Assembly: GCA_032718475.1 (NCBI GenBank)
Contig: JAUCBJ010008395.1
Span: 1-64,000 of the forward strand
Source of the DNA: Nemertoderma westbladi
Lineage: Eukaryota > Animalia > Xenacoelomorpha
DNA length: 64,000 nt
Direction of reading: 5' to 3'
This document shows, piece by piece, positions 8,712 through 44,111 of this stretch. The notes below the pieces were generated by a model. It worked only from the letters and a program-made list of their open reading frames with translations. It searched no databases and was not told the DNA's origin. Position numbers and translations under genes: made by a program. Every line of letters starts with the position of its first letter. Position 1 is the first letter of the stretch.

Positions 8712-9970
8712 TGTAAAAGCTTCTGTGGGATATAACTGGCCCTTTTGCTTCGCAATCCAGTTTCCCCCCTAGGCGCTGGAATACTCTAAAAGGCTCTATA
8801 ACTATATATATATTCCCCTCGCCCGCAAGGTACCGTTATAGGTGTTTTAACGGACATAAAAGTCATTCTGCTATATACGTGTTTTGGCGGACATGGTAAG
8901 GCAAAAAACCTGCAATGCACCAAATACCTTTCACAGCTTAGCCGTGATGATTCATATTACGACATCTAACAGCTGGTTGCTGACATTGAAACAGCCATTG
9001 GCCACATGGTTCTTTGTTTAGCTTAAGCCAATCAGAGCGATTTTTTCTGTCGACGTGTAGATATTCGGTCGATCATACTAGGAGTGTTCAGTCTTACTGT
9101 TTTTTGTGATACTGTTGTGTTGTTGCTATCTAGGCCAGGAACACCGGCTCTAGAGTCAACTCGTTCATACTTTAGAAGAAACATTAGTAGGCTTAAATTA
9201 TAGAGCGTATAACTGTTATCAGTGCAGTCCGACTCAATCGGCACATACATTGTCATATCATATCTTAACCTACCGTCTTAATGCTTTTTACTGTTGTCAT
9301 ATTTTGTATTAGTTGGTTGAATATTATTTGGAGAACATTTATAAAGAACCCAAATTTCCCAATTTTCTTGATACACTACAGGTTAGAGAGACGGGTTATA
9401 TATAGCGATTGCGACTTATATTATTGTGTATGTAGTGAATTTAATGCTATTTGATAAGCACTACATTGGTCCGTTGCTGTTCTCTCTATATATGATAAAA
9501 TTCATTGACGGTCGGCAAATTAGTGAGCAGTATTGTGTGTTACCGGTAGTGTGCATGATTGTGACTGATAACTAAGCATTTCCTAAAGAATGCGCCTCAT
9601 ACGTGAATCATAAGCCTTACCGACTTACCGTTGTGATTAGTATAAGTCATATCTCTGTTTACTTAGATAGAGCGCCACGTCCTAAAGGAACTGTTAATAT
9701 TTCCAGAAAGTGAATAATATTAGTCAGAAATTATTTATTAACGATCAATCGAATAATACAGTAAGCTTACACTGCAATAATAATCTAAGCCCTCAGAATC
9801 CAGCCCCCCGGGTATATCCAGCGGGTGAATGGACGCGCACTAGGCTGGCTTCTGCTAATGTTGTGTTTATTGGTATTAAATATTTGTCAACTTCTAAAGT
9901 ATATTTATAAACCAAAAGACATATAAATTTTGGCAGGTTAAACTGCTAAAGGTCTTCAAAAGCGCGTACA
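8712..9970 (+). repeat. 5' LTR of element A
   Basis: TGTAAAAGC...GCGCGTACA; direct repeat of 29505-30763. Confidence 0.97.
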
Positions 9971-9981
9971 ATAACAGTTAT
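9971..9981 (+). promoter_or_regulatory. Non-tRNA primer-binding site of element A (ATAACAGTTAT), complementary to LTR 9209-9219
   Basis: Abuts the LTR-terminal CA, has no TGG, and is the exact reverse complement of ATAACTGTTAT in the LTR. The function is inferred. Confidence 0.65.
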
Positions 9982-10036
9982 TGACTTTATTGCAGTAAGC
10001 AATAAAGTTGAAAGTACCGGTCAACCGGTAAACCTG

Positions 10037-10900
10037 AACCGGTACTTCTGTAGGTCAGTAGGCCCAACTGCCAGAACCGGTACTGCTGTAGGTCCGTAGG
10101 TCCAACTGTCAAAACCGGTACTTCTATAGGTCCGTAGGCCCAACTGTCCTAACCGGTACTTCCAGTATAAGTACATTAGTATTATTCGATTTTGATTATT
10201 GTATACCGGTAGGTCTCGATATTAAATCGGGGACGCCTGGTTTTTATTGAGATTTTACTTAGGTCTATTTCTGTCAGTTTTATTTCCTAGTAAGTTAATA
10301 TTGAGCTGAAGACGTGTAAGTCTGCTCAGATTGTCAGATAACTGTAGGCCGGACTGTTGTCGGATTGTTGTTGAGTTTGGAGAGATTGCGGCGTGTGTAG
10401 AGTTTGTCCGATAGAGTGCCAGTTAGTAAGTTGGGGCAGCCATAGCTGTAAGGTCAATCCCCTCTTAAAGAATAAGTCGTACTACCGTGTTAGAACGCAT
10501 ACTAACTAACAATTTTGGAATCTGCACATACTGTAGTTTATTTAGGCTTGACAGTATTCTGCCAGCGTTTTGGCCTGTGTTTGTTTGTGTGGTCTGTTCA
10601 GGTACCGTAATAGTTATTACTCAGATATTTTGTAGGCTGGATTGTTGTCTAGCTATTATTAGGTCTGAAGAGATTGCTGCGTGTGTAGAGTTTGTCTGAT
10701 AAAGTGCCAGTTAGTAAGTTGGGGCAGCCATTGCTGTAAGGTCAATCCCCTCTTAAAGAATAAGTCGTACTACCGTGTTAGAACGCATACTAACTAACCA
10801 TTTCGGAATCTACACGTACGGTAGTTTATTTAGGCTTGGTGGTAGTCTGCCAGCGTTTGGTTTGTATTTTGTTTGAGTATTCTGTACGGGTAGCGTAATA
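10037..10900 (+). repeat. Repeats in the 2.2-kb leader of A: ~38-bp unit x3+ (10037-10160) and ~290-bp direct duplication (~10380-10620 / ~10670-10910); mirrored at ~24570-25440
   Basis: AACCGGTACTxCTxTAGGTCxGTAGGxCCAACTG units. AAGGTCAATCCCCTCTTAAAGAATAAGTCGTACTACCGTGTTAGAACGCATAC occurs twice. Confidence 0.85.
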
Positions 10901-12199
10901 TTTATTATTCAGAGTTTATGCGATTATTCGCAACATTCATGTCCCCAAGTTTATTCCTACAGTAATTGTGTTTGTTACACATACCGTTATAGTTAAATTA
11001 ACCCCGGTACTACACGGGCTGCTTGGCGTAGGACAAGACTGGTGACTTTGTGCTCTGGTCACTCCAGCAGATGCCGTGGTTCTTTTAACTGTTCAAGTAT
11101 ATTTAACTACTGATTATTTGTTGTACCAGTGCTTGTACCTAATTTAGGGTTTAGTGTACAGTGCTTTCCGAAAGTAATTAGTGTGTAGGCAGTATATTTG
11201 TGTTGTAAAGTGGTTAATAGGCACGCTGGATCTGGTAGTCCGCGGTAATTAACTTCTAGGTAGGAACACTCCGTGATACATAACGTAGTACCTATAGCGA
11301 TACGGTTATAGGTCGTCAGGCGGTGGTATTTTCCTATCTGGACAGTGCAATATATTTACTACTACTTATTATTTCAAATACCGTAGTACCCTGTCCGTTG
11401 TAATAACCAGAATTCTAACCCTTTGTTAGGCTGGTTTGTAGACTTCCTGTAAAATTACCCTAAAATTTCGTACGTAATATTTTTGTTGTGTTTAATTAGA
11501 GAATTAATCTCACCCGTATCGTAAGTAATTTGTAGTATTAAGTAACTTAGGTAAATTAGAATTATCAGTTTTAGTGTCCCATAAGTAGCACTCCACTGAG
11601 AGCGCATAGCTTCTGTGTAGTGACCCCAGAAATAATAACATTTATTTCAAATATTGACAAAACCCATTTTAAACGGGTATATATCTATTATAAATCAACT
11701 TAAACGATTTATAAATAGTAGGCCTGCCATACAACAACTAGGTCTCAATATCAGTTGGACTACTGCTTAAATAACGGTAACAAAGTAAGTTAAAGTAACC
11801 AAGTAACCCTAAAATATTCAGAAATTCAATTATTCTAAAATAATTGACATACCGGTATTTACCATAGGCTTATTATATTTATTTCTATAAATTTGAGCTG
11901 AAATCATACCGGTACTCTGTAATTAATTCTAGTCCATAATTATACTTATATATACTATCAGTGTAAGCTGTATACCGGTATTCACGATAGGCCTATTATA
12001 TATTTATATATTTGTGCTAAAATTATATACCGGTACTCTGTGACAAACCTAGTTTACAATACTTATATATACTATAAGTGTATACCGGTATTCTAATATA
12101 CTGCGATAAATTACTGGTACTAGGCCAACGGTCATACTGAATTACTAGACTTGCTTTAACTGTAACTATAGCAGTAAGCATTCAACTGTATAGCTAAAC

Positions 12200-13938
12200 A
12201 TGTCTGACACTCAGCAAAACCTGTCAGACAGTCTAATCGATACAACCATCTGTGACACAGATAGGAGTGTGGAGCGATTAAGAAAGGAGTTCAGCTCACC
12301 TCCTACTGAAAGAAAAGTCATCCCTCCAGTAGTGGTATCGGACCCTAAGCTAATCCAACACCGTAGGTCTATCATCGGCACTCGGGCCCAAGTCAAACGG
12401 AACCAGGAAGCAGCTGTCCCACAGCAGCAACAGCCTAGTCAAGAAACTTGTTCCCAGCGATCCGATAGCTCCAGTAGTTCGGATACTGTCGAGCTGACCC
12501 CCGAACGCGGATTACAGATGACGGCTAAAGCCTACTCTGACCCCCTTCTCACCCTTCCTGCCGCAGTGCTAACTACTATATTGATTGCGGTGGAGGAACA
12601 TCAAGCCGACTGGGCGAGAAATAAGCGAGCGACCCAAGATAATTATGCGGGATACGCCAGGGAAGAATTGATGTCTATTGTCGAGTCACAATGGAACTTT
12701 CCCGGACCCGGACTCCCGTTAGATCTGTCCGAGGCTACTTGGGAAGATATACACAGGATGGGAGTGGCTAAAGATACGATGGATCCAGCTGTTTGGAAGA
12801 GGTCGGCAGCAGGATATGTGCAGGGATTCTTCGGCTCCTTAGAGCGATTAGAAGAACAACTGTTTCGACAACCCCAAGGACCTCAAGAGCAGGAAGAACT
12901 GCTATATCAAGTACGCAAAAGAACCCTATGCATTCGACTAATCCTATCAGCTTTTGAGGAAACTTCCAAAAGAAGACAGGACACGTCGCTGCAGGTAGCT
13001 GTCAAAACTTGGTTCCAGCGGGTAGGTCTCAAAGTACAAGAAACGGACCAGTGGAAATCCCAGCTGTCTGAGAGACTAACCTATGAAGAACCAACCGATG
13101 CCACCCTTTTTCAAGTGGAAGGCGAAGACACCGCAGAGAGACCACGAACGAGAGAAGCCATCGACATATATCTGTCCGACTATCAGCGATTCCTAGGAGA
13201 CGAAGAGTTGAGGAGACGGCTGTCTGGACTTTCCCCTAATAGTGAAGGAACCCAGCGTGTGTTAGACTCAATCGATGCTGAAATGTTAGCTGCTAACCAA
13301 GCTGAGTTTGATGAAAAACTCCGCCTCACTAGAGTCCAATAAGAACTAGTAAAGAAAAAAAGGATAGAGGACCGAAAGGCAGCTGCAGTAACAGCGGCAA
13401 TGGCCGAAGTGGAAGCAGAAAGAAAGGCAGCTGCAGTAACAGCGGCGGCAGAAGCAGAAGCAGAAAGAAAGGCAGCGGCGGCAGAAGCCGAAGCAGAAAG
13501 AAAGGCGACTGTGGCAGCAGCAAAGGCAGTGGCAGAAGCAGAACGGAGAGCCTCTGAGGAGACTACCCAACTGGAGTTGGAAAATCTGCAAGAGACGCAA
13601 GAAAACATAAATAAACAGTTAACTGCTAGTCACATGCAGATGATGAGAAAATCTACTCCCAAACGCCAAGGATATACGTCATCGGAGGAAAGCGAAACCA
13701 CCGATCCTGAAGGCGGAGGAAATAGATCTCGTCTAAGCAGGCGTAGAAAAACATCTTACCGTCACAAATTGCCTGATTTGCCCCCAGCTGTTAGAAGACA
13801 ATTAGCTAGCACAGACTTGAGTAGTATAGAACCTACAGACCAAATTATTAAGGTCAAAAGACTCCCTACTATAGTTGATGAGCCTGAAATAATTAGGCCT
13901 GTCGTTCCCAAAGTCACTCCTGTGTTAGAGACCCCTGT
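12200..13938 (+). pseudogene. Truncated gag of the A family (N-terminal ~580 codons, in-frame TAA at 13340-13342)
   Basis: Near-identical to the start of ORF 23276->20763, which has GAA at the position of this stop. The sequence switches to LTR sequence after ..GAGACCCCTGT. Confidence 0.93.
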
Positions 13939-14714
13939 TATAGAGCGTATAACTGTTATCAGTGCAGTCCGACTCAATCGGCACATACATTGTCATATCA
14001 TATCTTAACCTACCGTCTTAATGCTTTTTACTGTTGTCATATTTTGTATTAGTTGGTTGAATATTATTTGGAGAACATTTATAAAGAACCCAAATTTCCC
14101 AATTTTCTTGATACACTACAGGTTAGAGAGACGGGTTATATATAGCGATTGCGACTTATATTATTGTGGTTTGTAGTGAATTTAATGCTATTTGATAAGC
14201 ACTACATGAATCCGTTGCTGTTTTCTTTATATATGATAAAATTCATTGACGGTCGGCAAATTAGTGAGCAGTATTGTGTGTTACCGGTAGTGTGCATGAT
14301 TGTGACTGATAACTAAGCATTTCCTAAAGAATGCGCCTCATACGTGAATCATAAGCCTTACCGACTTGCCGTTGTGATTAGTATAAGTCATATCTCTGTT
14401 TACCTAGATAGAGCGCCACGTCCTAAAGGAACTGTTAATATTTTCCCGAAAGTAAATAATATTAGTCAGAAATTTATTAACGATCAATCGAATAATACAA
14501 TACAGTAAGCTTACACTGTAATAATAATCTAAGCCCTCAGAATCCAGTCTCCCGGGTATATCCAGCGGGTGAATGGACGCGCACTAGGCTGGCTTCTGCT
14601 AATGTTGTGTTTATTGGTATTAAATATTTGTCATCTTCTAAAGTCTATTTATAAACCAAAAGACATATAAATTTTGGCAGGTTAAACTGCTAAAGGTCTT
14701 CAAAAGCGCGTACA
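13939..14714 (+). repeat. 5'-truncated, chimeric A-family LTR (3' LTR of nested copy A')
   Basis: Matches the LTR from ~position 488 to the terminal GCGCGTACA, followed by AATAT (TSD). Confidence 0.92.
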
Positions 14715-15162: not shown

Positions 15163-18100
15163 TCACGTGGGGGAATCCCTAGATGTTTGAGGAATTAGGG
15201 AGGTGGTCGTGGGAAGAGTGTCTTGCCTTCCATAGTTCCCGGAGAGTTCTCTGTCTCTTTCCAGTAAACATAAACGACCAACTGGGCGATTGAGTTGTTG
15301 CGTCTCAAAGATTATGCCTGGCTTCTTGAAGTTACGCCGCATGACGATGAGTTCTACCGAGCGTACTAAACCATCATCTGAGATGTGGGTCTCGATGATA
15401 CGACCTGTCTGCCACCGTTTACGTGGGAGGTCTGGATCTACAATAAGCACCATATCTCCGGCGCTGACGTTTTCTTACTGCGCAAACCACTTAGTTCGAA
15501 GCTGTAGCGTGGGCAGATAATGTTTCTCGAAATGGTCAGCGAAACGACGGGATAGCAGCTGCATAAGTTGCCAAGTTCGACGGCAGTATTCGTCTCCGTC
15601 GGCAATCTCCGATCGTGGGAGCATGGCTACAGGTTTCTTCAGTAGGAAGTGCGCGGGTGTTAGCGCTTCCAGGGAATCGGGACTCGATGAGACTGGCATA
15701 AGCGGTCTCTCGTTGAGATAGGCAGCTATTTCCTCCATTAATGTCCGCAAAAGTTCGTCGGTGAGATACGCGCGGCATGGCACTATAAAGTGAAATGCCG
15801 TCTTGACACTTCTAATTAATCTCTCCCAACTTCCTCCCCACCAAGGGGCGTCGGCGGCGTTGAAGGTCCAGCTAGACGCTGTTATCCTTAGCTGGTCGTC
15901 CACCTGTCTTTGGTTCCAGTCCTTCACGTAAGCCTGTATTTCGTTGTTGGCACCAATGAAGTTCGTTCCCTTATCCGATCTCATGGTATTACTCGTCCCG
16001 AAGCGAGCGATCTGTCGTCGTAAACTTAAGACGAAGCTGTTGGTAGATAGATCGTTCACCATATCGAGATGGATGGCTCTACAAGTCATGCACACGAAGA
16101 TGACACACCATCTCTTGACTATAGTCCTCGCACGATATACTTCAATAGGGCCAAATAAATCTACACCAGTATTAGTAAAAGGTGGTTCATAGAAGCTTAC
16201 TCGTTCCCTAGGTAATTCTGCCTCTCGCTGTGTTAAAGGCCTACTGAATGCTTTCCTACAGGGTATGCAGTTCCTAAGAACTTGGTTCAGAGCTCTACGG
16301 GGTTTATCAAAATAATAGCGAGTTCGAATTTCGCTAAGAATTCGTTCTCTACCAGCATGATAAAGTTTACTGTGAACATCTACAATCATCTTGATTTGTA
16401 CTTCAAGATTTCTAATAAGTATGGGGAATTTGGTGTCAAAGGATAAGGGCGCGTTGGTGAGTCTTCCTCCAACACGTATTAACCCATCTATCATTGTGCT
16501 CGAGAATCGATCCCTTAAGCGCATCTGCGGGTTTCTCAACAACAGGAAATACTTATCGGAATCCTCAAAGCATTGCAGGAGTCTCAGTATCTGCTTATTT
16601 GTTACTTCATGCTCCTGGTGACTAATTTTCTCCTTTAGAAAACGGTCAGATGTCTTATATTTGGGTAAATTTTTAATAACATGAACTTGTGCAGATGTCA
16701 ATGGAGCGTTATCACTAGTGGTCTTCGTCCTGGAGTAGTGATGATGAAAACATCGTCTTAAATATGTGACGGCTTTACAGAGCCGATTCCAGGAACTGTA
16801 ATGATGCATTGCTCTCTGCAGCATGGGTGAGATTCCTTGCGAGACGTCTGGTATTCCAGATTTCCAATCTCTATCTCTAATTTCCACAACAGACTTATTT
16901 GTGTTGAGGGATTGTGGATCCGAAGCATCATTCCCGGAAGTATGTAATACAGATAGATCGATAGTCGGTTTAAATAACTTCGATTTACTCGCCCGGGTTT
17001 TAGGTTTGACTGTCTCCGCTCCCTTGGCTTGTCTAATCTCTGCCGTAGTAAGGTGAGGAGGCCATTCATCCTCTTCCTTGCTCAGGAAGTCGGGTCCACC
17101 CAACCAATCTGGAGTATCTATCAGTTCCTGTGGAGTTGCTCCCCTGGAGGCGATATCGGCTGGATTAATCATACCAGGGCAATGTCTCCATTGATCTATC
17201 TTTGTGCGACTAAGAATAATAGCTACTCGGTTAGTAACAAAAACGCTGAACTGACAGACTTCGTTGGTTAGATACTCCAACACGAGTAAAGCGTCGGTCC
17301 AATAAACCGTTTTCTCCAGTGGGTAGTCGATTTGTTCCGTTACGTTCCGGCCGATGGCTGTAGCGTATAAAGCCGCCTTTAACTCCGCTCGAGGAACCTT
17401 TAACTTGTTGTTAATCAACGCCTTAGAGGTAACCAAGGCGACTTTGATTCCATCCGGGGTTTCGACTCGCAGATATGCTACTATACCTATTCCCATGTCG
17501 CTGGCGTCTCCAAACACGTGGAGTTGATAGGAATACGTAGGAAGAACATGGCCAAAATATGCACGGGAAATTATAAAGTTCTCGATGGCAGGTAGAGAAT
17601 CTTCCCATTTCATCCATTTCTTTAACAATTCTCCCTTAAGCGGATCATCCCATGAGTGGTTTTCAAGCCACATTTGTTGCACTAAACTCCGAGCAATCAA
17701 TATAACTGGGCTAATAAATCCCAATGGGTCGAAATAAGTGCTCAGGATGCTTAAACAAATCCGTTTGGTCCGAACTGGATTATCTCGCTGTTTTAACTGA
17801 AAAAACAGGATGTCTCTTTCAGTGTCCCACTTCAAGCCTAGTGTCTTGGTTTCAGGAAGATCGTCCTTTATTAAGTCTAGGTCTTTCGTTCCTCGGTCTT
17901 CTACCGGTATGGCTTCCAGAAACTCACGGGAGTTGCTAGTGAATTTCGTCAGTCGAAATCCACCTCTTTTCAAACACTCCACCGTTCCTTTCGCGACAGC
18001 TATGGCTTCTTCTACTGATGGAAGGGACCTTAAATTGTCGTCCATGTATATATTCCGTTTGATGTTGTCAATCACCTCTTTTGAGAAGGAGTCTCGGTTG

Positions 18101-21100
18101 TCATTCGCAGTGGTTCGCACCACGGAGCAGGCGTTGGAAGGGCTTGATATGATTCCAAAGGCCTGGATGGTCATCCAGTATTCTACCGGTTTCTGATTGA
18201 GGTCTCCTTCAGGCCACCACAGAAATCTCAGGCTGTCTCTATCTCTATCCAGCGCCTTGACTTGTAAGAACATTCCTTCGATATCGGAGGCGAACGCGAT
18301 GGAATATTGTCTTAATCTTAAAAGTATTCCCAACAAAGATTGGAGTAAGTTGGGTCCTGGTAACAACTCGGAATTGAGGGATTGGCCCATATATAGGGCG
18401 GAGCTATCGAATACGACTCGTACTTCGTGTGGTTTACCGGGTTTGGGAACGTAATGATGTGTTAAGTAATACGTTCTCTCAGTCACTGGTGTTCCTTCCG
18501 GTACTCGCTCCGCGTATCCCTTTGTTATAAATTTCTTCAGCTGAGTTTGGTACATTTCTTTCGCTGAAGCATTAGCTGTAAGGCGTCGATATAATTGAGC
18601 GATTCTTTTCTCTGCCAAGGGTCTGTTATTTATAAATCTAGGTTCTCGTTTTCGAAATGGTAGGCCGATTTCATACCTACCTTGGTCCTTTAAAAAACGT
18701 GTAGTTGTTTCCTGGATTTGCTTGGCTCTTTCTTCTTCTATCGATAGAGCCTTATCATATGAATTGGGCTCTACCAGTTCCTGAGTAAAGAATCGTACGG
18801 CTAGTTCGTCCCGAGTTCTAGCGTTGCAGCGCTCTATCTCATTGTTTAGTTCGTCATTGTAAGCGATGGGTTCCGATGGGCGAATCAGTTGACATAGGTT
18901 CACCTGATTTTTCCAAGTTTGGTTTTCTGTAAGTAGGTCGATGGTGTTCTCTTGATCGAAGAGTTGGTAGATGTCGTCATTATCTGAAGAGTATGGTGTT
19001 TCCTCAGTTAGTTCATCCACCTCACTGCTCTCCTCGCTCCAATCACTCACCTGGTATACTCGTTCTTGTGGCCTTCTCTCTTCGAGAGTCCTGCGGGAAG
19101 GGCCAGTAAAGTACCAACCTACTCTAGTTCTTACCGCATAGGTTTGCAGTGGCTGCGGTTGAGCAGGCCGTTTCTCTAATGTTTCGAGCGCCTCGTGCGC
19201 GTTTTGGCCGATGAGTATTTGCACTCCAGGATAATCTGTCTGGAATCGAGGTATCTTAAGATGTTGGATGCTCTCATCTTCGTCCCAATTATAAAGGTCT
19301 GCTTGAGTAGTAGCGAAGTTCTTTATAGCCACAATTTTTACTGACCTTATACCTTGTGCTCCTAACTTATCCTGGGGGGTGGACAACACACCTACATAGT
19401 AATCTGCCGTTAGGGTAGATTTCCAAACCTGCATAATTCCTGACATATTCAATTTAGTCCGGAATTTGGGTTGTCCAGCAAAGATATCTTCGGCTAATTC
19501 TTGATCGATGAATGTTCCTGTGCTGCCGGAGTCAAGGAGTGCGTTCACTATGTAACTGTGGTTAGGACCGTGAACTCTTACCTGCACTACAGGAAATTCT
19601 CTGATTCCTACGTTGGAAGTTGGAGCTTTCCAAGATGGTTGTTTGGCAAAAGTAGTTGGGGGAAACTCATTGTTGGTGTCCTTTTCATAAGTAAGTGCTC
19701 GATACACTGCGGTATTGATTAGATAACAGGATTCGTTGGCGTCGGAGAATTCGTCAGTATAGAATCCTTCCATCTCAGACTCCTGATCAGTGTCATTTAC
19801 ATCACTGAATTGGACATGTAGTTCGGGCTCACTTACCTGACTCTGTTTGTCTCGTTCGAACTCACTGTGTAACAAGATGTGATGTTTCGCGCCACACTTT
19901 GCACACTTTATGTCGGAGTAACAGGTTCGCCATTGGTGTCCTGGTCTGAGGCAATTATAGCATAACCGCTTGTCCCACACAACTGCACGTCTGTCTACAA
20001 GGGATTTCTTTAGAAATTCAGCACACGCACTCAAACGGTGGGTCCCGTCGCACAGCGCACAGTTAGGTTTTATGTTACTCACTTTACCTTGGGTAACTTG
20101 ATGCACTCTCGTTTTTTCTTCGGGTTTTCTTCGGTGCATTCTGTTAGGAGACTGAGGGGGGGTCTTGGCGACCTGTTCTCTCCTATCGTTGTTTCGAGCC
20201 TTGTATTTACTTACATCTTTTGATGTTTTGTCAACGTAGTAAGATCTCTCAGTGTCTTTCCCGCTATCCTCTTCTTGAGAAGCTTGGCTTTCGCCGTCGT
20301 CAGTGTAACACACCGGTGTTACTCTTCTCCTAGAAGCGGGTTTCTTACTTACCTTATTTTCCGATGTTTTCTCTCTGGACTGCTTGATGAGTTGTAGTTT
20401 TACCTCACCATCTAAGAAGGACATGAGATCAGCCATGGTAGGACTTCGTCGTTGTTGTTCATTCATGTACAACACTTTCTTGTCCCAACGTGTACATACT
20501 CCACCCTTGGGTAAAGTAGAGACTACTGCTCCAATAACCATGGAACTCTGATATTCATGAGACTTACCTAACCAGTCCAATTGTCTACAGATTTCCTGAA
20601 TTTCATCGGAAAACTCTATAATCCCGCTACTAAGGAAGTGTCGGGGGGCTACTAATTTTGCATACAAATACTTAGCTATGTTATCCTTGTTACCATACCT
20701 GATGTTTAATGTATCCCAAACTTGTCTCAATCCATCTGGATGTCCAATAAACTTTAACGCCATTAACCTGGGAGGTCCTTCCAAGCACTTGATGAGGAAC
20801 CTAAGTTTCTCTCCGTTAGATTAGATAGTACAGAGTTTTGTATGCTATCTTTGTAATATTTGTTGAAAGGTAACCATTTCATCTCATCTCCATTGAATTT
20901 GACGATCTCTCCCACTTTGACCGCTTGGCGGGCTTCTGTTCTAGCCATCTGACGCGTAAAGCTTTCTTGGGCCATCGTGTTATTTAATATCGAATTATCG
21001 GTATATAAATTTCTCGGATCATTGTCAGGTCTATAAGGGATATCATTGATAACAGGTCTATAATCACCCTTAATAGGGTTTGCTATAGGAGTTTCTACTT

Positions 21101-23276
21101 CACTAGCAGTATAGATGCGGGTAGGCTCCACACCTTGCGCATGTACTACTTCAGACCTAACAGGTTGACACAATTTTACAGGGGGTATTGGTATTCCCTT
21201 TTGGATATTGACTAATTTGTCGCGTTCTAGCGCGATACTTTGCTGCACTTCTTGCAATTCGGCCCTACCTTCCCTTACTGTTCCCTTAAGTTGGTAGACA
21301 GTCTCCTGCATCTGTCCGAGCAGGAGATTCATCCCCCACCGTCCCTCCTCTACCCACTCGACCGCCGAAGCGGGAGTCGCCAACATTGTAGCGGGCTGAC
21401 GTGGGGCGACGGGAGACAAATCTTTGATTTCTCTCTCAGCTTCCAGGACAGGGATATTCTCATGGACTGTTCTACCGGGCACAGGCAGTGTAGTACTGTG
21501 TAAAGGGAATTTAGAGTTAAGCTCTGGAAGTACAGGGGTCTCTAACACAGGAGTGACTTTGGGAACGACAGGCCTAATTATTTCAGGCTCATCAACTATA
21601 GTAGGGAGTCTTTTGACCTTAATAATTTGGTCTGTAGGTTCTATACTACTCAAGTCTGTGCTAGCTAATTGTCTTCTAACAGCTGGGGGCAAATCAGGCA
21701 ATTTGTGACGGTAAGATGTTTTTCTACGCCTGCTTAGACGAGATCTATTTCCTCCGCCTTCAGGATCGGTGGTTTCGCTTTCCTCCGATGACGTATATCC
21801 TTGGCGTTTGGGAGTAGATTTTCTCATCATCTGCATGTGACTAGCAGTTAACTGTTTATTTATGTTGTCTTGCGTCTCTTGCAGATTTTCCAACTCCAGT
21901 TGGGTAGTCTCCTCAGAGGCTCTCCGTTCTGCTTCTGCCACTGCCTTTGCTGCTGCCACAGTCGCCTTTCTTTCTGCTTCAGCTTCTGCCGCCGCTGCCT
22001 TTCTTTCTGCTTCTGCTTCTGCTTCTGCCGCCGCTGTTACTGCAGCTGCCTTTCTTTCTGCTTCCACTTCGGCCATTGCCGCTGTTACTGCAGCTGCCTT
22101 TCGGTCCTCTATCCTTTTTTTCTTTACTAGTTCTTCTTGGACTCTAGTGAGGCGGAGTTTTTCATCAAACTCAGCTTGGTTAGCAGCTAACATTTCAGCA
22201 TCGATTGAGTCTAACACACGCTGGGTTCCTTCACTATTAGGGGAAAGTCCAGACAGCCGTCTCCTCAACTCTTCGTCTCCTAGGAATCGCTGATAGTCGG
22301 ACAGATATATGTCGATGGCGTCTCTCTTTCGTGGTCTCTCTGCGGTCTCTTCGCCTTCCACTTGAAAAAGGGTGGCATCGGTTGGTTCTTCATAGGTTAG
22401 TCTCTCAGACAGCTGGGATTTCCACTGGTCCGTTTCTTGTACTTTGAGACCTACCCGCTGGAACCAAGTTTTGACAGCAACCTGCAGCGACGTGTCCTGT
22501 CTTCTTTTGGAAGTTTCCTCAAAAGCTGATAGGATTAGTCGAATGCGTAGGGTTCTTTCGCGTACTTGATATAGCAGTTCTTCCTGCTCTTGAGGTCCTT
22601 GGGGTTGTCGAAACAGTTGTTCTTCTAATCGCTCTAAGGAGCCGAAGAATCCCTGCACATATCCTGCTGCCGACCTCTTCCAAACAGCTGGATCCATAGT
22701 ATCTTTAGCCACTCCCATTCTGTGTATATCTTCCCAAGTAGCCTCGGACAGATCTAACGGGAGTCCGGGTCCGGGAAAGTTCCATTGTGACTCGACAATA
22801 GACATCAATTCTTCCCTGGCGTATCCCGCATAATTATCTTGGGTCGCTCGCTTATTTCTCGCCCAGTCGGCTTGATGTTCCTCCACCGCAATCAATATAG
22901 TAGTTAGCACTGCGGCAGGAAGGGTGAGAAGGGGGTCCGAGTAGGCTTTAGCCGTCATCTGTAATCCGCGTTCGGGGGTCAGCTCGACAGTATCCGAACT
23001 ACTGGAGCTATCGGATCGCTGGGAACAAGTTTCTTGACTAGGCTGTTGCTGCTGTGGGACAGCTGCTTCCTGGTTCCGTTTGACTTGGGCCCGAGTGCCG
23101 ATGATAGACCTACGGTGTTGGATTAGCTTAGGGTCCGATACCACTACTGGAGGGATGACTTTTCTTTCAGTAGGAGGTGAGCTGAACTCCTTTCTTAATC
23201 GCTCCACACTCCTATCTGTGTCACAGATGGTTGTATCGATTAGACTGTCTGACAGGTTTTGCTGAGTGTCAGACAT
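15163..23276 (-). pseudogene. BEL/Pao Gag-Pol polyprotein of element A (~2700 codons), disrupted by a frameshift at ~20810 and an in-frame TAA at 15475-15477
   Basis: Three Gag knuckles (CALCDGTHRLSAC, CYNCLRPGHQWRTC, CAKCGAKHHILLH), protease LLDSGS, RT YMDD, RNase H FGDAS, integrase HSKLYH..CIPC, DLFGP, SDKGTNF, WERL, and C-terminal DDGLVRSV. Order PR-RT-RH-IN. Confidence 0.95.
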
Positions 23277-25506
23277 GTTTAGCTATACAGTTGAATGCTT
23301 ACTGCTATAGTTACAGTTAAAGCAAGTCTAGTAATTCAGTATGACCGTTGGCCTAGTACCGGTAATTTATCGCAGTATATTAGAATACCGGTATACACTT
23401 ATAGTATATATAAGTATTGTAAACTAGGTTTGTCACAGAGTACCGGTATATAATTTTAGCACAAATATATAAATATATAATAGGCCTATCGTGAATACCG
23501 GTATACAGCTTACACTGATAGTATATATAAGTATAATTATGGACTAGAATTAATTACAGAGTACCGGTATGATTTCAGCTCAAATTTATAGAAATAAATA
23601 TAATAAGCCTATGGTAAATACCGGTATGTCAATTATTTTAGAATAATTGAATTTCTGAATATTTTAGGGTTACTTGGTTACTTTAACTTACTTTGTTACC
23701 GTTATTTAAGCAGTAGTCCAACTGATATTGAGACCTAGTTGTTGTATGGCAGGCCTACTATTTATAAATCGTTTAAGTTGATTTATAATAGATATATACC
23801 CGTTTAAAATGGGTTTTGTCAATATTTGAAATAAATGTTATTATTTCTGGGGTCACTACACAGAAGCTATGCGCTCTCAGTGGAGTGCTACTTATGGGAC
23901 ACTAAAACTGATAATTCTAATTTACCTAAGTTACTTAATACTACAAATTACTTACGATACGGGTGAGATTAATTCTCTAATTAAACACAACAAAAATATT
24001 ACGTACGAAATTTTAGGGTAATTTTACAGGAAGTCTACAAACCAGCCTAACAAAGGGTTAGAATTCTGGTTATTACAACGGACAGGGTACTACGGTATTT
24101 GAAATAATAAGTAGTAGTAAATATATTGCACTGTCCAGATAGGAAAATACCACCGCCTGACGACCTATAACTGTATCGCTATAGGTACTACGTTATGTAT
24201 CACGGAGTGTTCCTACCTAGAAGTTAATTACCGCGGACTACCAGATCCAGCGTGCCTATTAACCACTTTACAACACAAATATACTGCCTACACACTAATT
24301 ACTTTCGGAAAGCACTGTACACTAAACCCTAAATTAGGTACAAGCACTGGTACAACAAATAATCAGTAGTTAAATATACTTGAACAGTTAAAAGAACCAC
24401 GGCATCTGCTGGAGTGACCAGAGCACAAAGTCACCAGTCTTGTCCTACGCCAAGCAGCCCGTGTAGTACCGGGGTTAATTTAACTATAACGGTATGTGTA
24501 ACAAACACAATTACTGTAGGAATAAACTTGGGGACATGAATGTTGCGAATAATCGCATAAACTCTGAATAATAAATATTACGCTACCCGTACAGAATACT
24601 CAAACAAAATACAAACCAAACGCTGGCAGACTACTACCAGGCCTAAATAAACTACTGTATGTGCAGATTCCAAAACGGTTAGTTAGTATGCGTTCTAACA
24701 CGGTAGTACGACTTATTCTTTAAGAGGGGATTGACCTTACAGCTATGGCTACCCCAACTTACTAACTGGCACTTTATCAGACAAACTCTACACAAGCAGC
24801 AATCTCTTCAGACCTAATAATAGCTAGACAACAATCCAGCCTACAAAATATCTGAGTAATAACTATTACGGTACCTGAACAGACCACACAAACAAACACA
24901 GGCCAAAACGCTGGCAGAATACTGTCAAGCCTAAATAAACTACAGTATGTGCAGATTCCAAAATTGTTAGTTAGTATGCGTTCTAACATGGTAGTACGAC
25001 TTATTCTTTAAGAGGGGATTGACCTTACAGCTATGGCTGCCCCAACTTACTAACTGGCACTCTATCGGACAAACTCTACACACGCCGCAATCTCTCCAAA
25101 CTCAACAACAATCCGACAACAGTCCGGCCTACAGTTATCTGAACAATCTGAGCAGACTTACACGTCTTCAGCTCAATATTAACTTACTAGGAAATAAAAC
25201 TGACAGAAATAGACCTAAGTAAAATCTCAATAAAAACCAGGCGTCCCCGATTTAATATCGAGACCTACCGTTATACAATAATCAAAATCGAATAATACTA
25301 ATGTACTTATACTGGAAGTACCGGTTAGGACAGTTGGGCCTACGGACCTACAGAAGTACCGGTTCTGACAGTTGGACCTACGGACCTACAGCAGTACCGG
25401 TTCTGGCAGTTGGGCCTACTGACCTACAGAAGTACCGGTTCAGGTTTACCGGTTGACCGGTACTTTCAACTTTATTGCTTACTGCAATAAAGTCAATAAC
25501 TGTTAT

Positions 25507-26791
25507 TGTACGCGCTTTTGAAGACCTTTAGCAGTTTAACCTGCCAAAATTTATATGTCTTTTGGTTTATAAATAGACTTTAGAAGATGACAAATATTTA
25601 ATACCAATAAACACAACATTAGCAGAAGCCAGCCTAGTGCGCGTCCATTCACCCGCTGGATATACCCGGGAGACTGGATTCTGAGGGCTTAGATTATTAT
25701 TGCAGTGTAAGCTTACTGTATTGTATTATTCGATTGATCGTTAATAAATTTCTGACTAATATTATTTACTTTCGGGAAAATATTAACAGTTCCTTTAGGA
25801 CGTGGCGCTCTATCTAGGTAAACAGAGATATGACTTATACTAATCACAACGGCAAGTCGGTAAGGCTTATGATTCACGTATGAGGCGCATTCTTTAGGAA
25901 ATGCTTAGTTATCAGTCACAATCATGCACACTACCGGTAACACACAATACTGCTCACTAATTTGCCGACCGTCAATGAATTTTATCATATATAAAGAAAA
26001 CAGCAACGGATTCATGTAGTGCTTATCAAATAGCATTAAATTCACTACAAACCACAATAATATAAGTCGCAATCGCTATATATAACCCGTCTCTCTAACC
26101 TGTAGTGTATCAAGAAAATTGGGAAATTTGGGTTCTTTATATATGTTCTCCAAATAATATTCAACCAAACAATAGTAAATAGCAGTATAATAATGTATAT
26201 TGAACCGATAATGTAAAACTGAATTGCGATCAGTTGTTATGATAAGATAAGTTGATTGTTATGCACTGATTGTTATGTTATGATAACAGTTATACGCTCT
26301 ATAATTTAAGCCTACTAATGTTTCTTCTAAAGTATGAAAACGAATTGACTCTAGAGCCGGTGTTCCTGGCCTAGATAGAAACAACACAACAGTATCACAA
26401 AAACAGTAAGACTGAACACTCCTAGTATCATCGGCCGAATATCTACACGTCGACAGAAAAAATCGCTCTGATTGGCTCAAACCAAACAAAGAACCGTGCG
26501 TCCAATGGCTGTTTCCATGCCAGCAACCAGCTGCTAGATGTCGCAATCTGAATCATCAAGGCCAAGCCGTGTAAAGGTATTTGGTGCATTGAGGGTTTTT
26601 TGCCTTACCATGTCCGCCAAAACACGTATATAGAAGAATGACTTTTATGTCCGTTAAAACACCTATAACGGTACCTTGCGGGCGAGGGGAATATATATAT
26701 AGTTAGAGAGCCTTTTAGAGTATTCCAGCGCCTGGGGGGAAACTGGATTGGGAAGCAAAAGGGCCAGTTATATCCCACAGAAGCTTTTACA
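25507..26791 (-). repeat. 5' LTR of nested copy A' (1285 bp, diverged variant)
   Basis: Reverse complement runs TGTAAAAGC..GCGCGTACA. Flanked by ATATT (26792-26796). PBS-like ATAACAGTTAT at 25506->25496 and its complement at 26293->26283. Confidence 0.95.
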
Positions 26792-27977
26792 ATATTGCTC
26801 TTCTACCTTATATTAAATAATACATATAGTAGCGTGATGTCCCTCTAACAGTAGCGTAAAACGCAAATAAATCTGTTAAACCTTTTGACCATCTGTAATT
26901 CTAGTCGATTAAGATATCGTGGCACACACCGATATACTTGAAAGACAAATTATAGAATCAGTGGTTAATGTCCCCAGACAGGTTCTGGAATAAATCGGTG
27001 CCCATCTTAAATATTAATTTAATATTTAGTAAAATCTGTAAAATTCAGATCCGTTAACAATTCTAGTCGATTAAGATATCGTAGCACTTACCGATACTCT
27101 TAAAAGGACAAAATTCCTAGAATCAAGGATCCAAGTCCCCAGACACGTTCTGGAATAAAATTGTGTCTATTTAATATTAAATAATAAAATTCACGGGAAT
27201 AAATTTAAATTCATATTTTTAAATGAATTTCATAAATTGTCATTTTGTACAATTTATAACATTCCCAAAATTCCATTAATTAATAGATCATGGGAGCGGA
27301 GATTCATCCTATTGAGTGTATTAGAGTGCGAGAATCTCCAACATATAGTCAATAGCCAATAAAATTAATAAAATCATGTATAAAGAGGATATTGACAATT
27401 AAAGAATTATTATTAAATAGCATTCCAGATCTGTATGCATGAGAATTACCCTAATTCTACAGCTAGCATTCCATAATGTCACCATAGCAACACCCACGCT
27501 AGAATTAGAAGCAAGTTAAGAGAACAATAGAAAGCTTGTCCCATTGCATAGCATAGAGAATACATAACACACTGTTAGTATCCAAGGATACACAGTAATA
27601 ACGTGACATTCTGGAATGCACTGACTAACGGACAAATGGCCTGTATGTGTACAATTGGTGACAGTTGTGTGGAATTTGTGCGTTTGTAGGTGAATGTTAC
27701 TGCTAAGGTGTGTTTACAGTAGCTAGTCGCAATTGTGAAAGTAGCCCAACTCTCCTATAGAAAGAACCTAAAGTGGATTCAAGCCTTTGTGACGGACAGT
27801 GGAGTGACTTGTGCCGGTTATCGTTGTCGTGCTGTTGCTACATGTTGGCGTAAACACCGCGACGACGGTACATCGGCGCTGAGAATCCCACTGTCTGGGG
27901 GCAAAGAGAGGTAGGCAGCGACGTCCGCTCGCCTAAACATAAACTCATTTCGATATTAACAAACTCAGATAGCAGAT

Positions 27978-29426
27978 ATGACGGAGTTGATAGAAGATGA
28001 TCTTGGTATCAGGGAGCGATATACTCTACCTTTACAAGCATTTGTGGATAGCTTGATACGCGGTGAAACCGATCCAACCATTACGGAGGACGATGGTCGT
28101 TATATCGAACCGCCGATGTCCCAAGAGCAACTTACGCGTGAATTGGACTATCGAAAATTCACCGCTCGCTATACGCATCGTAATGGTACGTATATGGACT
28201 TCCTAACTACCGGCCATCCTATCGATTTACATGATACGGACGATGTAGACACCGAAAGGGAAATGGTTCTATTTAAATATCATACCCAGCGGAGTCGTAA
28301 CGATAAACCGAGAATAGATCACGAAAATTATATTCGTAACAGACTGGGAAGACGAACCAATATGCCTAGAATCTGAGGAGATTCAGCCTATCGCGCCCGG
28401 AACAGCGACAACGATTACATCCTAGAATGGTATCAAGGTCCACAGTGTCTCACTGCGTACGATTATCGCCATGCCAACTATGTTTCTCGGCAACGTTGTC
28501 GGTTATGCGCATCGAGAGACCATGTTACGCCCATGGACACAAACGTCCGCTGTTCCTATTTCCACGAACGACCGGCGATGGAAATTTATTGCGCGTATTG
28601 CAGACTCAATAACTTGCATATTTTTGCGGTTTGCCCTCAATTTATGACTCAATGTCACCGTTGTCGGCTAAAGGGACACGCCAGTTTCGATTGCCCTTTT
28701 AATCACGATTTAGAAAGCGTAGATGAAATGATCACACTACGTTACATCAGAGCTTGGGAAGCGAACGCTGATTTACATTGTGATTCGCGCCATCGCTATT
28801 ATCCCGGACGCGCTTACGAAGGAGTTTATGCGTTCCATCCTTATCTATTCGCTTCGGTTGAACAGAAATCACGCATATCGAGTTACGAACTACTGAAGCG
28901 CGTCGGAGAATGTATCTCAACCAAGTTCGTACGCAAATTTCTCAGGAGTGTTAATCCTAGCGACCTTCATTCCTATAACTTAATCAATTATATCCGTCAG
29001 GATCCGGACTATGGAGACTTGTTTGTTAACTCACACCCCGAGTTACAGGAAGTATATCGACGGCCTTACGAATACCGAGCCCGCGAACGCGAGTTGGAAA
29101 GAACCATTAAACCCCGGAGGTTTCTAACTGCCTATGGTCCACCCACGGCCCTCGTTCAGACCACTCGTAAAGGACCCGTAAGAGCGGCTGTCTGGAAACG
29201 AGCTCTCAAAGCCGTTAGACCCCTCTCCCCTGACGTTGATGTCAATCAACCCGGTACTTCGACTGGCGGATACACCGACCATAATCCTACACCCTCTGAT
29301 GCAATCATATTGCACCCTTCACCCAGGAGTTATAGCCCTCCTTGTAAAGTGGCTCGCCCCAAGGAGAAAAGGACTCTGGCTAGCTTTAAGAAACTGCATA
29401 AACGCCGTCCGCGCAAGAAAGACTAA
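27978..29426 (+). CDS. Accessory ORF of element A (~482 codons, one in-frame TGA at 28374-28376): zinc-knuckle protein with a basic C-terminus
   Basis: ORFs 27978-28376 and 28533-29426 share a frame and the gap between them has no stop. Motifs CRLCASRDH..C, CAYCRLNNLHIFAVC, CHRCRLKGHASFDC; tail KKLHKRRPRKKD. Confidence 0.75.
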
Positions 29427-29504
29427 CTGTTTAGAGTATTTACGTATATTAGAAACTGTGATTTTGTATATTTTATAGACTCAAATCCCATTTTCTGGGA
29501 GCGG

Positions 29505-30763
29505 TGTAAAAGCTTCTGTGGGATATAACTGGCCCTTTTGCTTCGCAATCCAGTTTCCCCCCTAGGCGCTGGAATACTCTAAAAGGCTCTATAACTATAT
29601 ATATATTCCCCTCGCCCGCAAGGTACCGTTATAGGTGTTTTAACGGACATAAAAGTCATTCTGCTATATACGTGTTTTGGCGGACATGGTAAGGCAAAAA
29701 ACCTGCAATGCACCAAATACCTTTCACAGCTTAGCCGTGATGATTCATATTACGACATCTAACAGCTGGTTGCTGACATGGAAACAGCCATTGGCCACAT
29801 GGTTCTTTGTTTAGCTTAAGCCAATCAGAGCGATTTTTTCTGTCGACGTGTAGATATTCGGTCAATCATACTAGGAGTGTTCAGTCTTACTGTTTTTTGT
29901 GATACTGTTGTGTTGTTGCTATCTAGGCCAGGAACACCGGCTCTAGAGTCAACTCGTTCATACTTTAGAAGAAACATTAGTAGGCTTAAATTATAGAGCG
30001 TATAACTGTTATCAGTGCAGTCCGACTCAATCGGCACATACATTGTCATATCATATCTTAACCTACCGTCTTAATGCTTTTTACTGTTGTCATATTTTGT
30101 ATTAGTTGGTTGAATATTATTTGGAGAACATTTATAAAGAACCCAAATTTCCCAATTTTCTTGATACACTACAGGTTAGAGAGACGGGTTATATATAGCG
30201 ATTGCGACTTATATTATTGTGTATGTAGTGAATTTAATGCTATTTGATAAGCACTACATTGGTCCGTTGCTGTTCTCTCTATATATGATAAAATTCATTG
30301 ACGGTCGGCAAATTAGTGAGCAGTATTGTGTGTTACCGGTAGTGTGCATGATTGTGACTGATAACTAAGCATTTCCTAAAGAATGCGCCTCATACGTGAA
30401 TCATAAGCCTTACCGACTTACCGTTGTGATTAGTATAAGTCATATCTCTGTTTACTTAGATAGAGCGCCACGTCCTAAAGGAACTGTTAATATTTCCAGA
30501 AAGTGAATAATATTAGTCAGAAATTATTTATTAACGATCAATCGAATAATACAGTAAGCTTACACTGCAATAATAATCTAAGCCCTCAGAATCCAGCCCC
30601 CCGGGTATATCCAGCGGGTGAATGGACGCGCACTAGGCTGGCTTCTGCTAATGTTGTGTTTATTGGTATTAAATATTTGTCAACTTCTAAAGTATATTTA
30701 TAAACCAAAAGACATATAAATTTTGGCAGGTTAAACTGCTAAAGGTCTTCAAAAGCGCGTACA
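29505..30763 (+). repeat. 3' LTR of element A
   Basis: Direct repeat of 8712-9970, preceded by PPT GGGAGCGG. Confidence 0.97.
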
Positions 30764-31293
30764 CATGTATTTTAAAGACCTCAGGGGGAACACCATCTAC
30801 TCCACTGGCACGATTGGTCTTAATGCTCTTTGCAGCAGCCTTCACTTCTGCAAAGGAGATATCACCAATGGGAATATCTGGGAGTTCAGACTCAGACACT
30901 TTTACTTCTATAAAGTTATCAGGCAATACCCTGTCATTATTGAGGAGCTGTTCAAAGTGGGCCTTCCAACCATTGAGGCGATCGGCTGGTGATTCAGCCT
31001 TAACCTTGGTGGTTGGTTGGCTTTTCGACCAGCAAGCAAGTTGATCGATCTCCATGCCTGGGATGATTGCCTGCTGTCGTCAGCATCATTGATGGCATCA
31101 ACCTGTTGGTTTATTAGCTCCTGTAAATTAACAGAGTACTGCCTGTTCAGGGACCTAGATGCAGCCTTAACTACATTCTTGGCCGCTGTAGTCTGTTTGA
31201 GTCGGGACTCTTTCTGCGCCTTGTAGAGGTCATTTCGGCACTTCTGAATTTTGTTGTCAGTCCAGGGGGCCCGTTTCCTGTTTCGAGGGTATA
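30764..31293 (-). mobile_element. RTE-like LINE, middle segment between the two BEL insertions
   Basis: WKAHFEQLLN..ISFAEVKAAAKSIKTNRASGVDGVPPEVFK (pre-RT linker); joins in frame to the 7259-8711 segment. Confidence 0.92.
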
Positions 31294-32251
31294 TGTTAAA
31301 CTGGGATGGTAATAATGGGCCTCGCCCTGATTACTTTGTTTATTATCTGATAATAATTGACTGCCAATCTCTGTAGATAGTAGCTCCCACATTTCCTACT
31401 TTCTATTGGTACAGTACAAGGTGCTAATAGTTATGATCAGCTGTTCTGGCCCTACCATTGAATGCCTTGTAACGATAGTTAAGGAATTATTGCGGTCAGG
31501 TGGTACCTCAGCTTTCATGTAATAGTGTTGCTTTCATGTAGTCAGGTTGTACCTCTACATTGATAATACCGTACTAAACATATTTGAACTTATTTATATT
31601 TAGATATATTTCATATTTATATTCAGTCAGTGGCTACCTAGTACTCGCTGTGCTGTACGAGGCGACCCAGTCTTGCCTGGTGCTTTTCCTCAACCGAGCA
31701 GTTTACCGTCCGCGTGAGTTATCCGGTCGCGGTCACGGTCGGTGCGTCTGGATGGTTGGTGGCCCCCCTTGGCCCCAACGGCAACCACCGATAGCTCAAC
31801 AAACTCTATTTCATTCGGCCTTGCCTATTCGCCTGACATAACGGCATAGGGAGCCATACTTTCCTTTAACGTGTTATCTTTCACGATACAGATAACCCAC
31901 CTATTGGGTTTCTGGGATCATTATATTATGATATAAAGTACACCCTCAATCGTACTGATTGTCGGGCCTGTTTGTGTTGGTTATTATTGTGAACGGTGCT
32001 ACACAGCGGAGGCCAGTTAAACAAACAAAGTGAGTTTCAAACCACATTAATAGGTTTACCCTGCTTGGTGTCTTGTAGCTCTACCGTAAAGCCATAAGCT
32101 GCCCCCTTATGACCCTTTTGTGTAAGATAGTTTAAAATAAGTGTGCGAATGTCCCCTATCCACCCCGGAATTCGACCTGTCAGTCACGTCGTACCGAGAA
32201 AGTCGGGTGTCAGGTTCTTTATTAACTGTCTAACAGTCACCGACTTTGACA
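31294..32251 (+). repeat. 5' LTR of element B
   Basis: TGTTAAACT...CTTTGACA; direct repeat of 41496-42453. Confidence 0.97.
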
Positions 32252-32263
32252 TTAAAGGAAAGT
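32252..32263 (+). promoter_or_regulatory. Non-tRNA primer-binding site of element B (TTAAAGGAAAGT), complementary to LTR 31858-31869
   Basis: Abuts the LTR-terminal CA, has no TGG, and is the exact reverse complement of ACTTTCCTTTAA in the LTR. Confidence 0.7.
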
Positions 32264-32876
32264 TAGATTTTTCAATTAATACCAGTTACCTGTAATTGAT
32301 ATTAATTGGAGAAAGTGCGATCCTCATTCGCCACCTTTCTGTGTGGTCTGATTTTACTTACAGTACCTTTAAAGTGAGATATATATTAAAAAAAAATATA
32401 TAAGGGTTAATTTTTTACTGTTGCTGGTAATATCTAAGTTTATATATATACTGTACTGTTGTATATATGGTGTGTTTACATAGAGTAGATATACCGGTAG
32501 TATACATAATTAAATTGACTTGGGATTCCAATGATATTTGACTGTGGAATGTCTGCATACTGGCAACCTTAATAAAATTACACACCTTTGATTAAATTGA
32601 TAATTGGTTTAATTTCGTAAATTTAAATATATTGAAATTGGCCTAAAACGAATAGTTTTGTTTCCGCAGCGATTTGTTGCAGATATTGTTTACTATTTCG
32701 ACTTACTACTAACCGCTAACCGCTGTATAGTTTCTCATTTAAATTTAGGCTATAATGTAAAAGGTTGACCTGAAAAAATTGGTTATTAAAAAGATAAAGG
32801 CTAATTTATTTTATTTTACAGGCCTACATAATCAATTATTAATTTATATAAATAACAATTCCCACAAGTATTAAAT

Positions 32877-40280: not shown

Positions 40281-41495
40281 GCAAAATCTGACAAAGGCTT
40301 CTGCTGTGAAAACAATGCCAGTGGGCCTTAAACTGTCTTCTACATAGCTTTACATTACAAGTATGTATGATTTATGTTAATTATGTGTTAGTGGGGGTAT
40401 GTGTGTGTTTGTACTACGTATATATGGGTATGCAAATAATTACCTAGACTTAAAAATTACCCCTTAGTGAATTTTGGGAGCGGAATCGAAATTATTACTC
40501 GACTGATGACAGACCGAGTTTTACTTCTGCCATTTCTCTGTTTGTAAAGAAACACGGGGCATGCATTAAAGAAAAAAAAAAAAAAAATGTCACATTGCAA
40601 TGTATAAGGGCTTGAATATGTTCTTATATTTGCTTTGGAACTTGCCATCTGTAATTAAAACTTAGTATTAGTAAAAGACACCAAGCAATTTTGAACCTCA
40701 TAGGTAATCCAGCTCACTTTGTCATAACGGCATAAGCTTATTAGTACTGAACACAATATGGCTGATGCTTCAGGCTTCGATTAATCTGAGAGATCCGATT
40801 CAGTGTTGGCGATGTTGGGGAGAAATGATGCGAGGCTACCCTCTGATATACAATAGCTTCAAGTCTCACATTCTCGTGCGTCTCATTTAGATATGTTTTG
40901 GATCACTATCTAACACGAGTTTCCATCTGTATCTGCGCCATTGTGGTCTGATTTCTCCAAGAAATCTGGATATGAAAACCGAAGAAACATTCTGAGGATC
41001 TCACTGCTGATGATGTTGTGGATCCACCACTGCTTACATCACCTCCACTTCTCAACCCCTGGGATCCGTTGCTTGGACGATTCTGGATCTACTACTTTGC
41101 ATGCAGGATGGTAGTCAGTGTGTTTGCCCGATCGATATTCGTACCAATACACAGGTTGCTCAGGAAGCATTGCCTTCAAAACCGAATCAGTACTCCAATT
41201 ATTCATATATATATATATTAAATACACCGTACTGTGTTCTGATTGTGCAATTTGTAAAATTTATGCTAATCTTATTCAACACTTGAAATAGAATAGGGCT
41301 TTTTCCGCTGTGTAGCTCCTTTTGCCCTTTCTAGGAGATATAATTTTTTGAGATATAAATTTTGTGCTTTGTAGATATTTTTAGTTTTGAGTTATTTCGC
41401 TATACCACTGAAGTCCACTTACTCCACTGAAGTCCAGTGCGAGTCCATCTTCCCTGACTATGGGATGCTACCTCGCGTCGTATCCCAGGGAGCGG

Positions 41496-43860: not shown

Positions 43861-44111
43861 TGAAATACAATAAAATATAATCTAGTCCGTACCCTAATGA
43901 AATTGCAAGTGTTATTATTATATTATATTATTATTTGAGTACCAAAGATAAATTACATTAATTATTCCTCCCCAGGACCAAAACGAAATATACAGTATTT
44001 GGTAGGACCATGGGTTATTATCTTGTTGAGATTTTTACTCCAGAGATTTTTACATAATCAATCAGGATAACTATATTACAACTTATCCTATAAAGAAATA
44101 AACTCCTCATA

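Follow-up and report, generated by a model that had tools for sequence, protein, structure and literature searches.

Element A, a BEL/Pao retrotransposon of Nemertoderma westbladi, has an accessory coding region of its own, which, as judged from gaps and substitutions among related copies, is under purifying selection in the element family. The DNA analysed, hereafter the window, is a stretch of 64,000 nt (contig JAUCBJ010008395.1, positions 1 to 64,000). Within it the accessory reading frame runs from an ATG at 27978 to a stop at 29424-29426 and comprises 482 codons with one in-frame TGA at codon 133 (28374-28376), which separates ORF-a from ORF-b (Table 1). The first-pass annotation had proposed a non-env accessory gene in a BEL/Pao element, and this central claim held up: the region lies inside an element bounded by LTRs and target site duplications (TSDs), is selected, and has no hydrophobic segment. 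The TGA is likely no readthrough site but a side effect of a segment that lies out of frame. As for function, a CERV/Rev-like nuclear factor that would bind the element's own RNA is the reading I tentatively prefer, and it could well be wrong.

Table 1. Features of element A and of its accessory region (positions in the window).
Feature	Position	Strand	Remarks
5' LTR of element A	8712..9970	+	1259 nt; TSD copy 8707-8711 directly before
5' UTR and 5' part of gag	9971..14714	+	joins straight onto the LTR 3' fragment
LTR 3' fragment, deleted nested copy after inversion	13938-14714	+	inner TSD, repeat comparison
gag-pol of element A, inverted in the window	15163..23282	-	DUF1759, Peptidase_A17, Integrase_H2C2, DUF5641
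Nested-copy LTR, opposite orientation	25507..26791	-	91% to 3' LTR; inner TSD
Non-coding 3' spacer	26797..27977	+	~124-nt tandem duplication; indel-rich among copies
ORF-a (upstream ORF)	27978..28376	+	132 codons, acidic, pI 5.3; TGA at its end
+1-frame open stretch across the TGA	28318..28425	+	constrained frame at 28365-28386
ORF-b (downstream ORF)	28377..29426	+	349 codons, pI 9.5 (basic); no ATG before codon 53
Atypical Cys/His cluster CX2CX4HX9C	28497..28553	+	motif scan; not a canonical knuckle
CCHC knuckle pair	28590..28694	+	CX2CX5HX4C (28590-28634), CX2CX4HX4C (28653-28694)
Predicted all-helical region, fold unassigned	28719..29105	+	low confidence; pLDDT means 35.7, 44.3
Basic tail, putatively NLS-like	29388..29423	+	13/30 last residues K/R
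Polypurine tract	29497..29504	+	identical 8 nt in element B
3' LTR of element A	29505..30763	+	TSD copy 30764-30768 directly after

Host element and position of the accessory ORF

Element A spans 8712-30763, and its two LTRs (TGT...ACA) differ by 2 mismatches and are flanked by an identical 5-bp TSD. Pao-type Pfam families, the gag box, the LTRs, the polypurine tract and the TSD place it in BEL/Pao (Belpaoviridae). The gag box is a triple Cys-His box, a BEL/Pao trait according to the accessible part of PMC554778, and the spacings in this box and in that of element B (see below) both differ from those of the accessory ORF. The LTR length is slightly over the 0.2-1.2 kb range given for BEL/Pao, and of the 18-nt tRNA primer-binding site expected after the 5' LTR (PMC8742986 for both) no TGG-type start was found directly after the 5' LTR of element A. 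The gag-pol frame is broken twice, by a frame change near 20763-20820 and by a stop at 15475 within DUF5641.

The gag N-terminal region (20763-23282, minus strand) encodes ~800 residues without a Pfam match and includes a coiled-coil-like stretch rich in alanine and glutamate. The 5' UTR, ~2.2 kb long, has internal repeats; either the long gag N-terminus or the 5' UTR is a possible source of an upstream exon. The element is surrounded by RT-bearing LINE-like sequence that it splits (7259-8785 and 30687-31330, both on the minus strand; RVT_1, DUF6451).

In the window, gag-pol and the accessory ORF are on opposite strands, minus and plus respectively. This is explained by an inner, second 5-bp TSD (14715-14719 and 26792-26796) together with 5-kb inverted repeats within element A: a deleted copy would have inserted backwards in the 3' region and the stretch enclosed by the repeats would have flipped, whether in vivo or during assembly. 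The stretch 8708-26795 accordingly appears as a nested deleted copy of element A in opposite orientation plus an inversion, real or an assembly flip. Read in the sense of the element, the end of pol is followed by 1629 nt and then by the ATG of the accessory ORF, both in the same sense. One contig from run X4 extends 134 nt before 26804 and matches the pol-side sequence of the window by eye, which supports the linkage of pol and the accessory ORF independently of this assembly. At the other end, the stop lies 78 nt from the 3' LTR, in agreement with the distance annotated earlier. The region was also examined for hallmarks of a nested element, and around the accessory ORF there were no terminal repeats that would mark one.

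When the 2.7-kb region was shuffled 2000 times, no open frame of 349 codons arose. The composition of the accessory ORFs is unlike that of gag-pol, and their CpG o/e is 1.64 and 1.31 against 0.72-0.92 elsewhere in element A. The predicted lack of a signal peptide or TM segment was borne out by a crude test, the maximum 19-residue hydropathy being 0.46 in ORF-a and 0.83 in ORF-b. The basic tail, putatively NLS-like, was confirmed as well. The description as a triple zinc-knuckle protein was right in that three Cys/His clusters are present, but the first cluster is non-canonical and the Pfam match of zf-CCHC_3 to the knuckle region (E 1.4e-4, 22.1 bits) is under the cut-off of 27. Two single-sequence folds were obtained, and their mean pLDDT values were too low for a fold search.

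A second BEL/Pao element, element B, lies at 31294-42453, with an unbroken ORF of 2474 codons (32856-40280), near-identical LTRs and a 5-bp TSD; it has no long 3' ORF and, like element A, no TGG-type tRNA primer site. In both elements, the bases that directly follow the 5' LTR could pair with a position within the LTR: 9971-9981 to LTR position 498-508 in element A (11 nt, chance about 1e-3), and 32252-32263 to LTR position 565-576 in element B (12 nt, chance about 2e-4). Tf1 is the precedent for self-priming, and by analogy these matches suggest Tf1-like self-priming in two BEL/Pao families. Elsewhere in the window, an open frame at 44094-44801 with PAN domains is probably a host gene exon, and tandem-repeat arrays at 47600-56300 and 60574-61416 (units of ~11, 12, 17, 54 and 68 nt) give rise to long spurious ORFs.

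Selection among copies and the origin of the TGA

The stretch was present in six of nine listed public runs, from four studies and under two organism labels; four runs were analysed, and the best-matching one may be the source sample. None of the listed runs that contain the stretch is on record as RNA, and X4 is RNA by guess only. The pieces compared were the 32 longest of 33,361, and the variant rows the 40 best-supported of 788. Because of overlap and relatedness among the pieces, and of bias in the sample, the p-values given here overstate independence.

Among these 32 longest pieces, the 14 from ORF-b contained no gap in any case, with 535 substitutions over 3854 nt at 3-18% divergence (covering 28396-29288), while eight of nine pieces from the upstream non-coding region were gapped (Fisher p 1.8e-5, for non-independent pieces). 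This contrast argues for purifying selection on the accessory coding region. ORF-a was less uniform, with gaps in two of seven pieces, and two further pieces were mixed. All of the best 12 of 81 indel rows fell outside both ORFs. Outside the shifted segment described below, 8 of the 11 non-private variants listed were synonymous (p 0.01), and the three from ORF-a among the rows listed (28124, 28127, 28152) were all synonymous in its own frame. Left out of these counts were 28391 and 28392, which lie in an indel zone, as well as 28330, 28570, 28660, 28666, 29194 and 29398, at which the window departs from nearly all copies. The latter six are all second codon positions, which indicates that the lineage of this particular copy is decaying.

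All 30 bins of 26800-29500 were covered in each of the four runs. Both conditions under which the first-pass annotation would have been refuted came out in its favour: other copies have the region and show constraint in it, and no hallmarks of a nested element surround it. Deletion joints within both ORFs were seen in DNA runs, and deleted derivatives that cut the ORFs therefore exist. One such joint in ORF-a (28005-28215) occurred in runs of both organism labels, which suggests an amplified deleted subfamily.

The surroundings of the TGA (28305-28445) were inspected across the four runs, with letters listed at a frequency of at least 2%. At 28374-28376 no other letter reached this threshold in any of the four runs, while 28365, 28366, 28377 and 28386 were listed as variable. 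The TGA is therefore a shared stop, common to the majority class in four runs, and its earlier interpretation as a CGA>TGA mutation of this copy, a private nonsense mutation, had to be abandoned. The four variable positions were all synonymous in the +1 frame and none was synonymous in the annotated frame (p 0.009). Further downstream, two of four variant rows were synonymous in the annotated frame (28397, 28415), and the other two changed the amino acid in either frame. The open stretch of the +1 frame is limited to 28318-28425, contigs broke off at 28339-28352 and 28396-28404, and length variants at 28390-28395 made up about 4, 14, 16 and 22% of the summed depth in the four runs, a measure that is not a copy count. 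The majority class, with the split arrangement, accounted for 74% of depth in run X5.

In this copy and in the majority class, the reading register of a segment of ~50 nt (about 28340-28395) thus likely differs from that of both flanks, a conclusion drawn from n=4 variants with the upstream edge bracketed between 28318 and 28365. Given the +1-frame constraint around it, the TGA is likely an accident of the wrong frame. The annotated picture of one 482-aa frame with a single TGA consequently stands as regards its ATG, its lone TGA and its stop, but not as regards the constraint near the TGA, which lies in the +1 frame. As the majority class shares the split, the family amplified without needing an unbroken gene in cis.

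Homology searches and candidate functions

The accessory protein had no true homologue in the collections searched. None of 3020, 36 and 89 candidates in turn was relevant, none of 64 metagenome stretches was confirmed, and three exact 20-mer matches were all put down to chance. A search of 1.84 billion representatives returned one match, a generic multi-knuckle protein that aligned over the knuckles only. In a set of 5.8 billion, ORF-b alone was compared with shorter and longer proteins, and proteins of near length were reached via the read-through query only. ORF-a had no Pfam or PHROG match and no usable Atlas match, and PHROGs gave no match at all. Neither an AIR2-like Pfam family, nor a DNA-binding family, nor a glycoprotein family was matched. 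Against the PDB, full ORF-b found nothing at E 10 and the helical region nothing under E 0.5. The knuckle pair matched yeast Air2 knuckles 2-3 best (2LLI), weakly: E 2.1e-4 for the whole chain, with a best stretch at i-E 0.14. This alignment shares the CX2CX5HX4C-P spacing, and its score is summed over repeated knuckles. Atlas neighbours were zf-CCHC, Air2-like and ZCCHC7 clusters with scores of 0.78-0.86, below the 0.9 reliability line, and serve as a lead only.

The tentatively preferred CERV/Rev-like reading is built on the motifs and on the analogy with CERV. The split in the majority class, the deletion joints within both ORFs, the gaps in two ORF-a pieces and the failure to find a true homologue in the collections searched count against it. 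Because the accessory ORF begins 1.6 kb after pol, its RNA would probably be spliced or internally started. The zinc-knuckle product would likely enter the nucleus and, by analogy with CERV, likely bind the unspliced RNA of its own element, and this binding would help the RNA to escape retention or decay and so to be exported, as CERV does for Cer1. Split copies would make no 482-aa protein and would depend on the product of other copies in trans, or on ORF-b alone.

An unlikely but credible alternative is that the split arrangement is itself functional, with ORF-a and ORF-b as separate products or exons, and ORF-b spliced to ORF-a or to the gag N-terminus. The dominance of the TGA class in all four runs fits this, as does the finding that 7 of 8 intermediate-frequency variants on both flanks were synonymous (p 0.003), although recombination with other subfamilies could produce the same synonymous pattern. 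CERV is spliced from gag exons (PMC10309623) and rotifer ORF3s are expressed via spliced messages (PMC5408684), as far as the accessible parts of both papers go. Against splicing, no strong acceptor was found, the seven YAG sites in 28290-28500 having 6-10 pyrimidines in the 19 nt upstream; no canonical GT..AG joint was seen among the best 15 of 16 joints; and the +1-frame constraint at 28365-28386 would be left unexplained. A split or spliced arrangement is compatible with the CERV/Rev-like function.

It is improbable that the protein is a mimic of Air2/ZCCHC7, a captured TRAMP-type adaptor or decoy that would shield element RNA from the nuclear exosome. The alignment of the knuckle pair to Air2 and its equal spacing, the AIR2-like and ZCCHC7 clusters among the Atlas neighbours, and the high CpG o/e, which hints at a foreign origin, all point this way, but the i-E of the best stretch, the summation over repeated knuckles and the Atlas scores weigh against it, as does the lack of an AIR2-like Pfam family. 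Five knuckles and a Trf4-binding IWRxY linker characterise the Air proteins (PMC3384339, accessible part). The accessory protein resembles Air1, Air2 and ZCCHC7 of TRAMP in the spacing of its knuckle pair, but only two of its clusters are canonical knuckles, the IWRxY linker is missing and the score is weak. As the five knuckles and the linker are absent, the likeness to Air2 is one of resemblance and not of membership.

A trans-activator or anti-silencing factor that acts on the DNA or chromatin of the LTR is equally improbable: the basic tail, the Cys/His clusters and the predicted helical region would suit it, and plant elements have nuclear extra-ORF products (accessible part of PMC7264820), but CCHC knuckles typically bind single-stranded nucleic acid (accessible part of PMC3384339) and no DNA-binding family was matched. 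The chances are smaller still for a second nucleocapsid-like chaperone for packaging or self-primed reverse transcription. The tandem knuckles, together with the missing tRNA-type primer-binding site and the 11-nt self-complementary match of element A, speak for this, but gag already has its triple Cys-His box, whose spacing differs from ORF-b (motif spacing alone was compared), and the role in self-priming is weakened because element B has the same signature without a long 3' ORF.

Programmed TGA readthrough to a 482-aa protein, also raised in the first-pass annotation, is now highly improbable. The invariance of the TGA in the four runs and the single frame shared by its flanks speak for it. 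Readthrough would, however, call for a single constrained frame before and after the stop: the stop is conserved, but the nearby constraint lies in the +1 frame, with none of four nearby variants synonymous in the annotated frame. The 100 nt downstream of the TGA fold no better than shuffles (z +1.31), and an Rfam scan of 26797-30763 gave no match, so that no SECIS or readthrough structure was found. UGA-G is, moreover, not known as a typical leaky context. Lastly, the idea that the ORF rides along neutrally or came in with an unrelated element is barely credible and largely refuted, since the composition unlike gag-pol and the deleted derivatives are outweighed by frame-preserving divergence of up to 18%, by full coverage of the region in four of four runs, and by the lack of long terminal repeats of its own around the ORF.

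A wider picture, which I consider unlikely, is that of a 'complex' BEL/Pao lineage whose zinc-knuckle protein, possibly a captured Air2/ZCCHC7 module, would hijack nuclear RNA surveillance or export and serve the split majority of copies in trans. Independently of this picture, a selected non-env zinc-knuckle gene that lacks a detectable homologue would add the poorly studied BEL/Pao superfamily to the groups with regulatory accessory genes such as Rev and CERV, and would offer a handle on how unspliced element RNA passes nuclear surveillance.

Comparison with known accessory genes

Cer1 is a Ty3/gypsy-type element. For its CERV protein, splicing of the message and a role in export have both been demonstrated in C. 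elegans (PMC10309623, accessible part). The accessory protein differs from CERV in the superfamily of its element and in having CCHC knuckles where CERV has a C4-type loop.

For Cer7, Bowen and McDonald reportedly suggested an additional small ORF. Among BEL/Pao elements, roo, Tas, Cer7 and a mosquito BEL with a Chuviridae-like glycoprotein are described as having an env-like third ORF (PMC8742986, PMC554778 and PMC13524379). They share the superfamily and the extra-gene position with the accessory ORF, which is unlike them in having neither a hydrophobic segment nor a glycoprotein family but zinc knuckles and a basic tail. The ICTV profile of BEL/Pao gives gag, pol and env only (PMC8742986), and the extra BEL/Pao genes named in the accessible parts of PMC3118150, PMC13524379 and PMC554778 are env-like. 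Carriers of additional genes named in the accessible part of PMC2774666 are Tat-clade and fungal chromovirus elements, not BEL/Pao. In the literature searched, no CCHC accessory gene was described for BEL/Pao; such elements may be recorded in Repbase, in subscription journals or among the sequence supplements of PMC3118150.

The ORF3s of bdelloid rotifers (PMC5408684) and the additional ORFs of plant elements (PMC7264820) resemble the accessory ORF in that, within the accessible text, they are family-specific and 3' of pol, with some products nuclear and messages often spliced. Unlike it, they encode GDSL, DEDDy, TM or coiled-coil products or are antisense, and they belong to other superfamilies. 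Non-env extra ORFs occur in fly elements as well (PMC11952523, accessible part). Extra ORFs per se are already known in other LTR groups, and what would be new is a selected, non-env zinc-knuckle gene in a BEL/Pao element.
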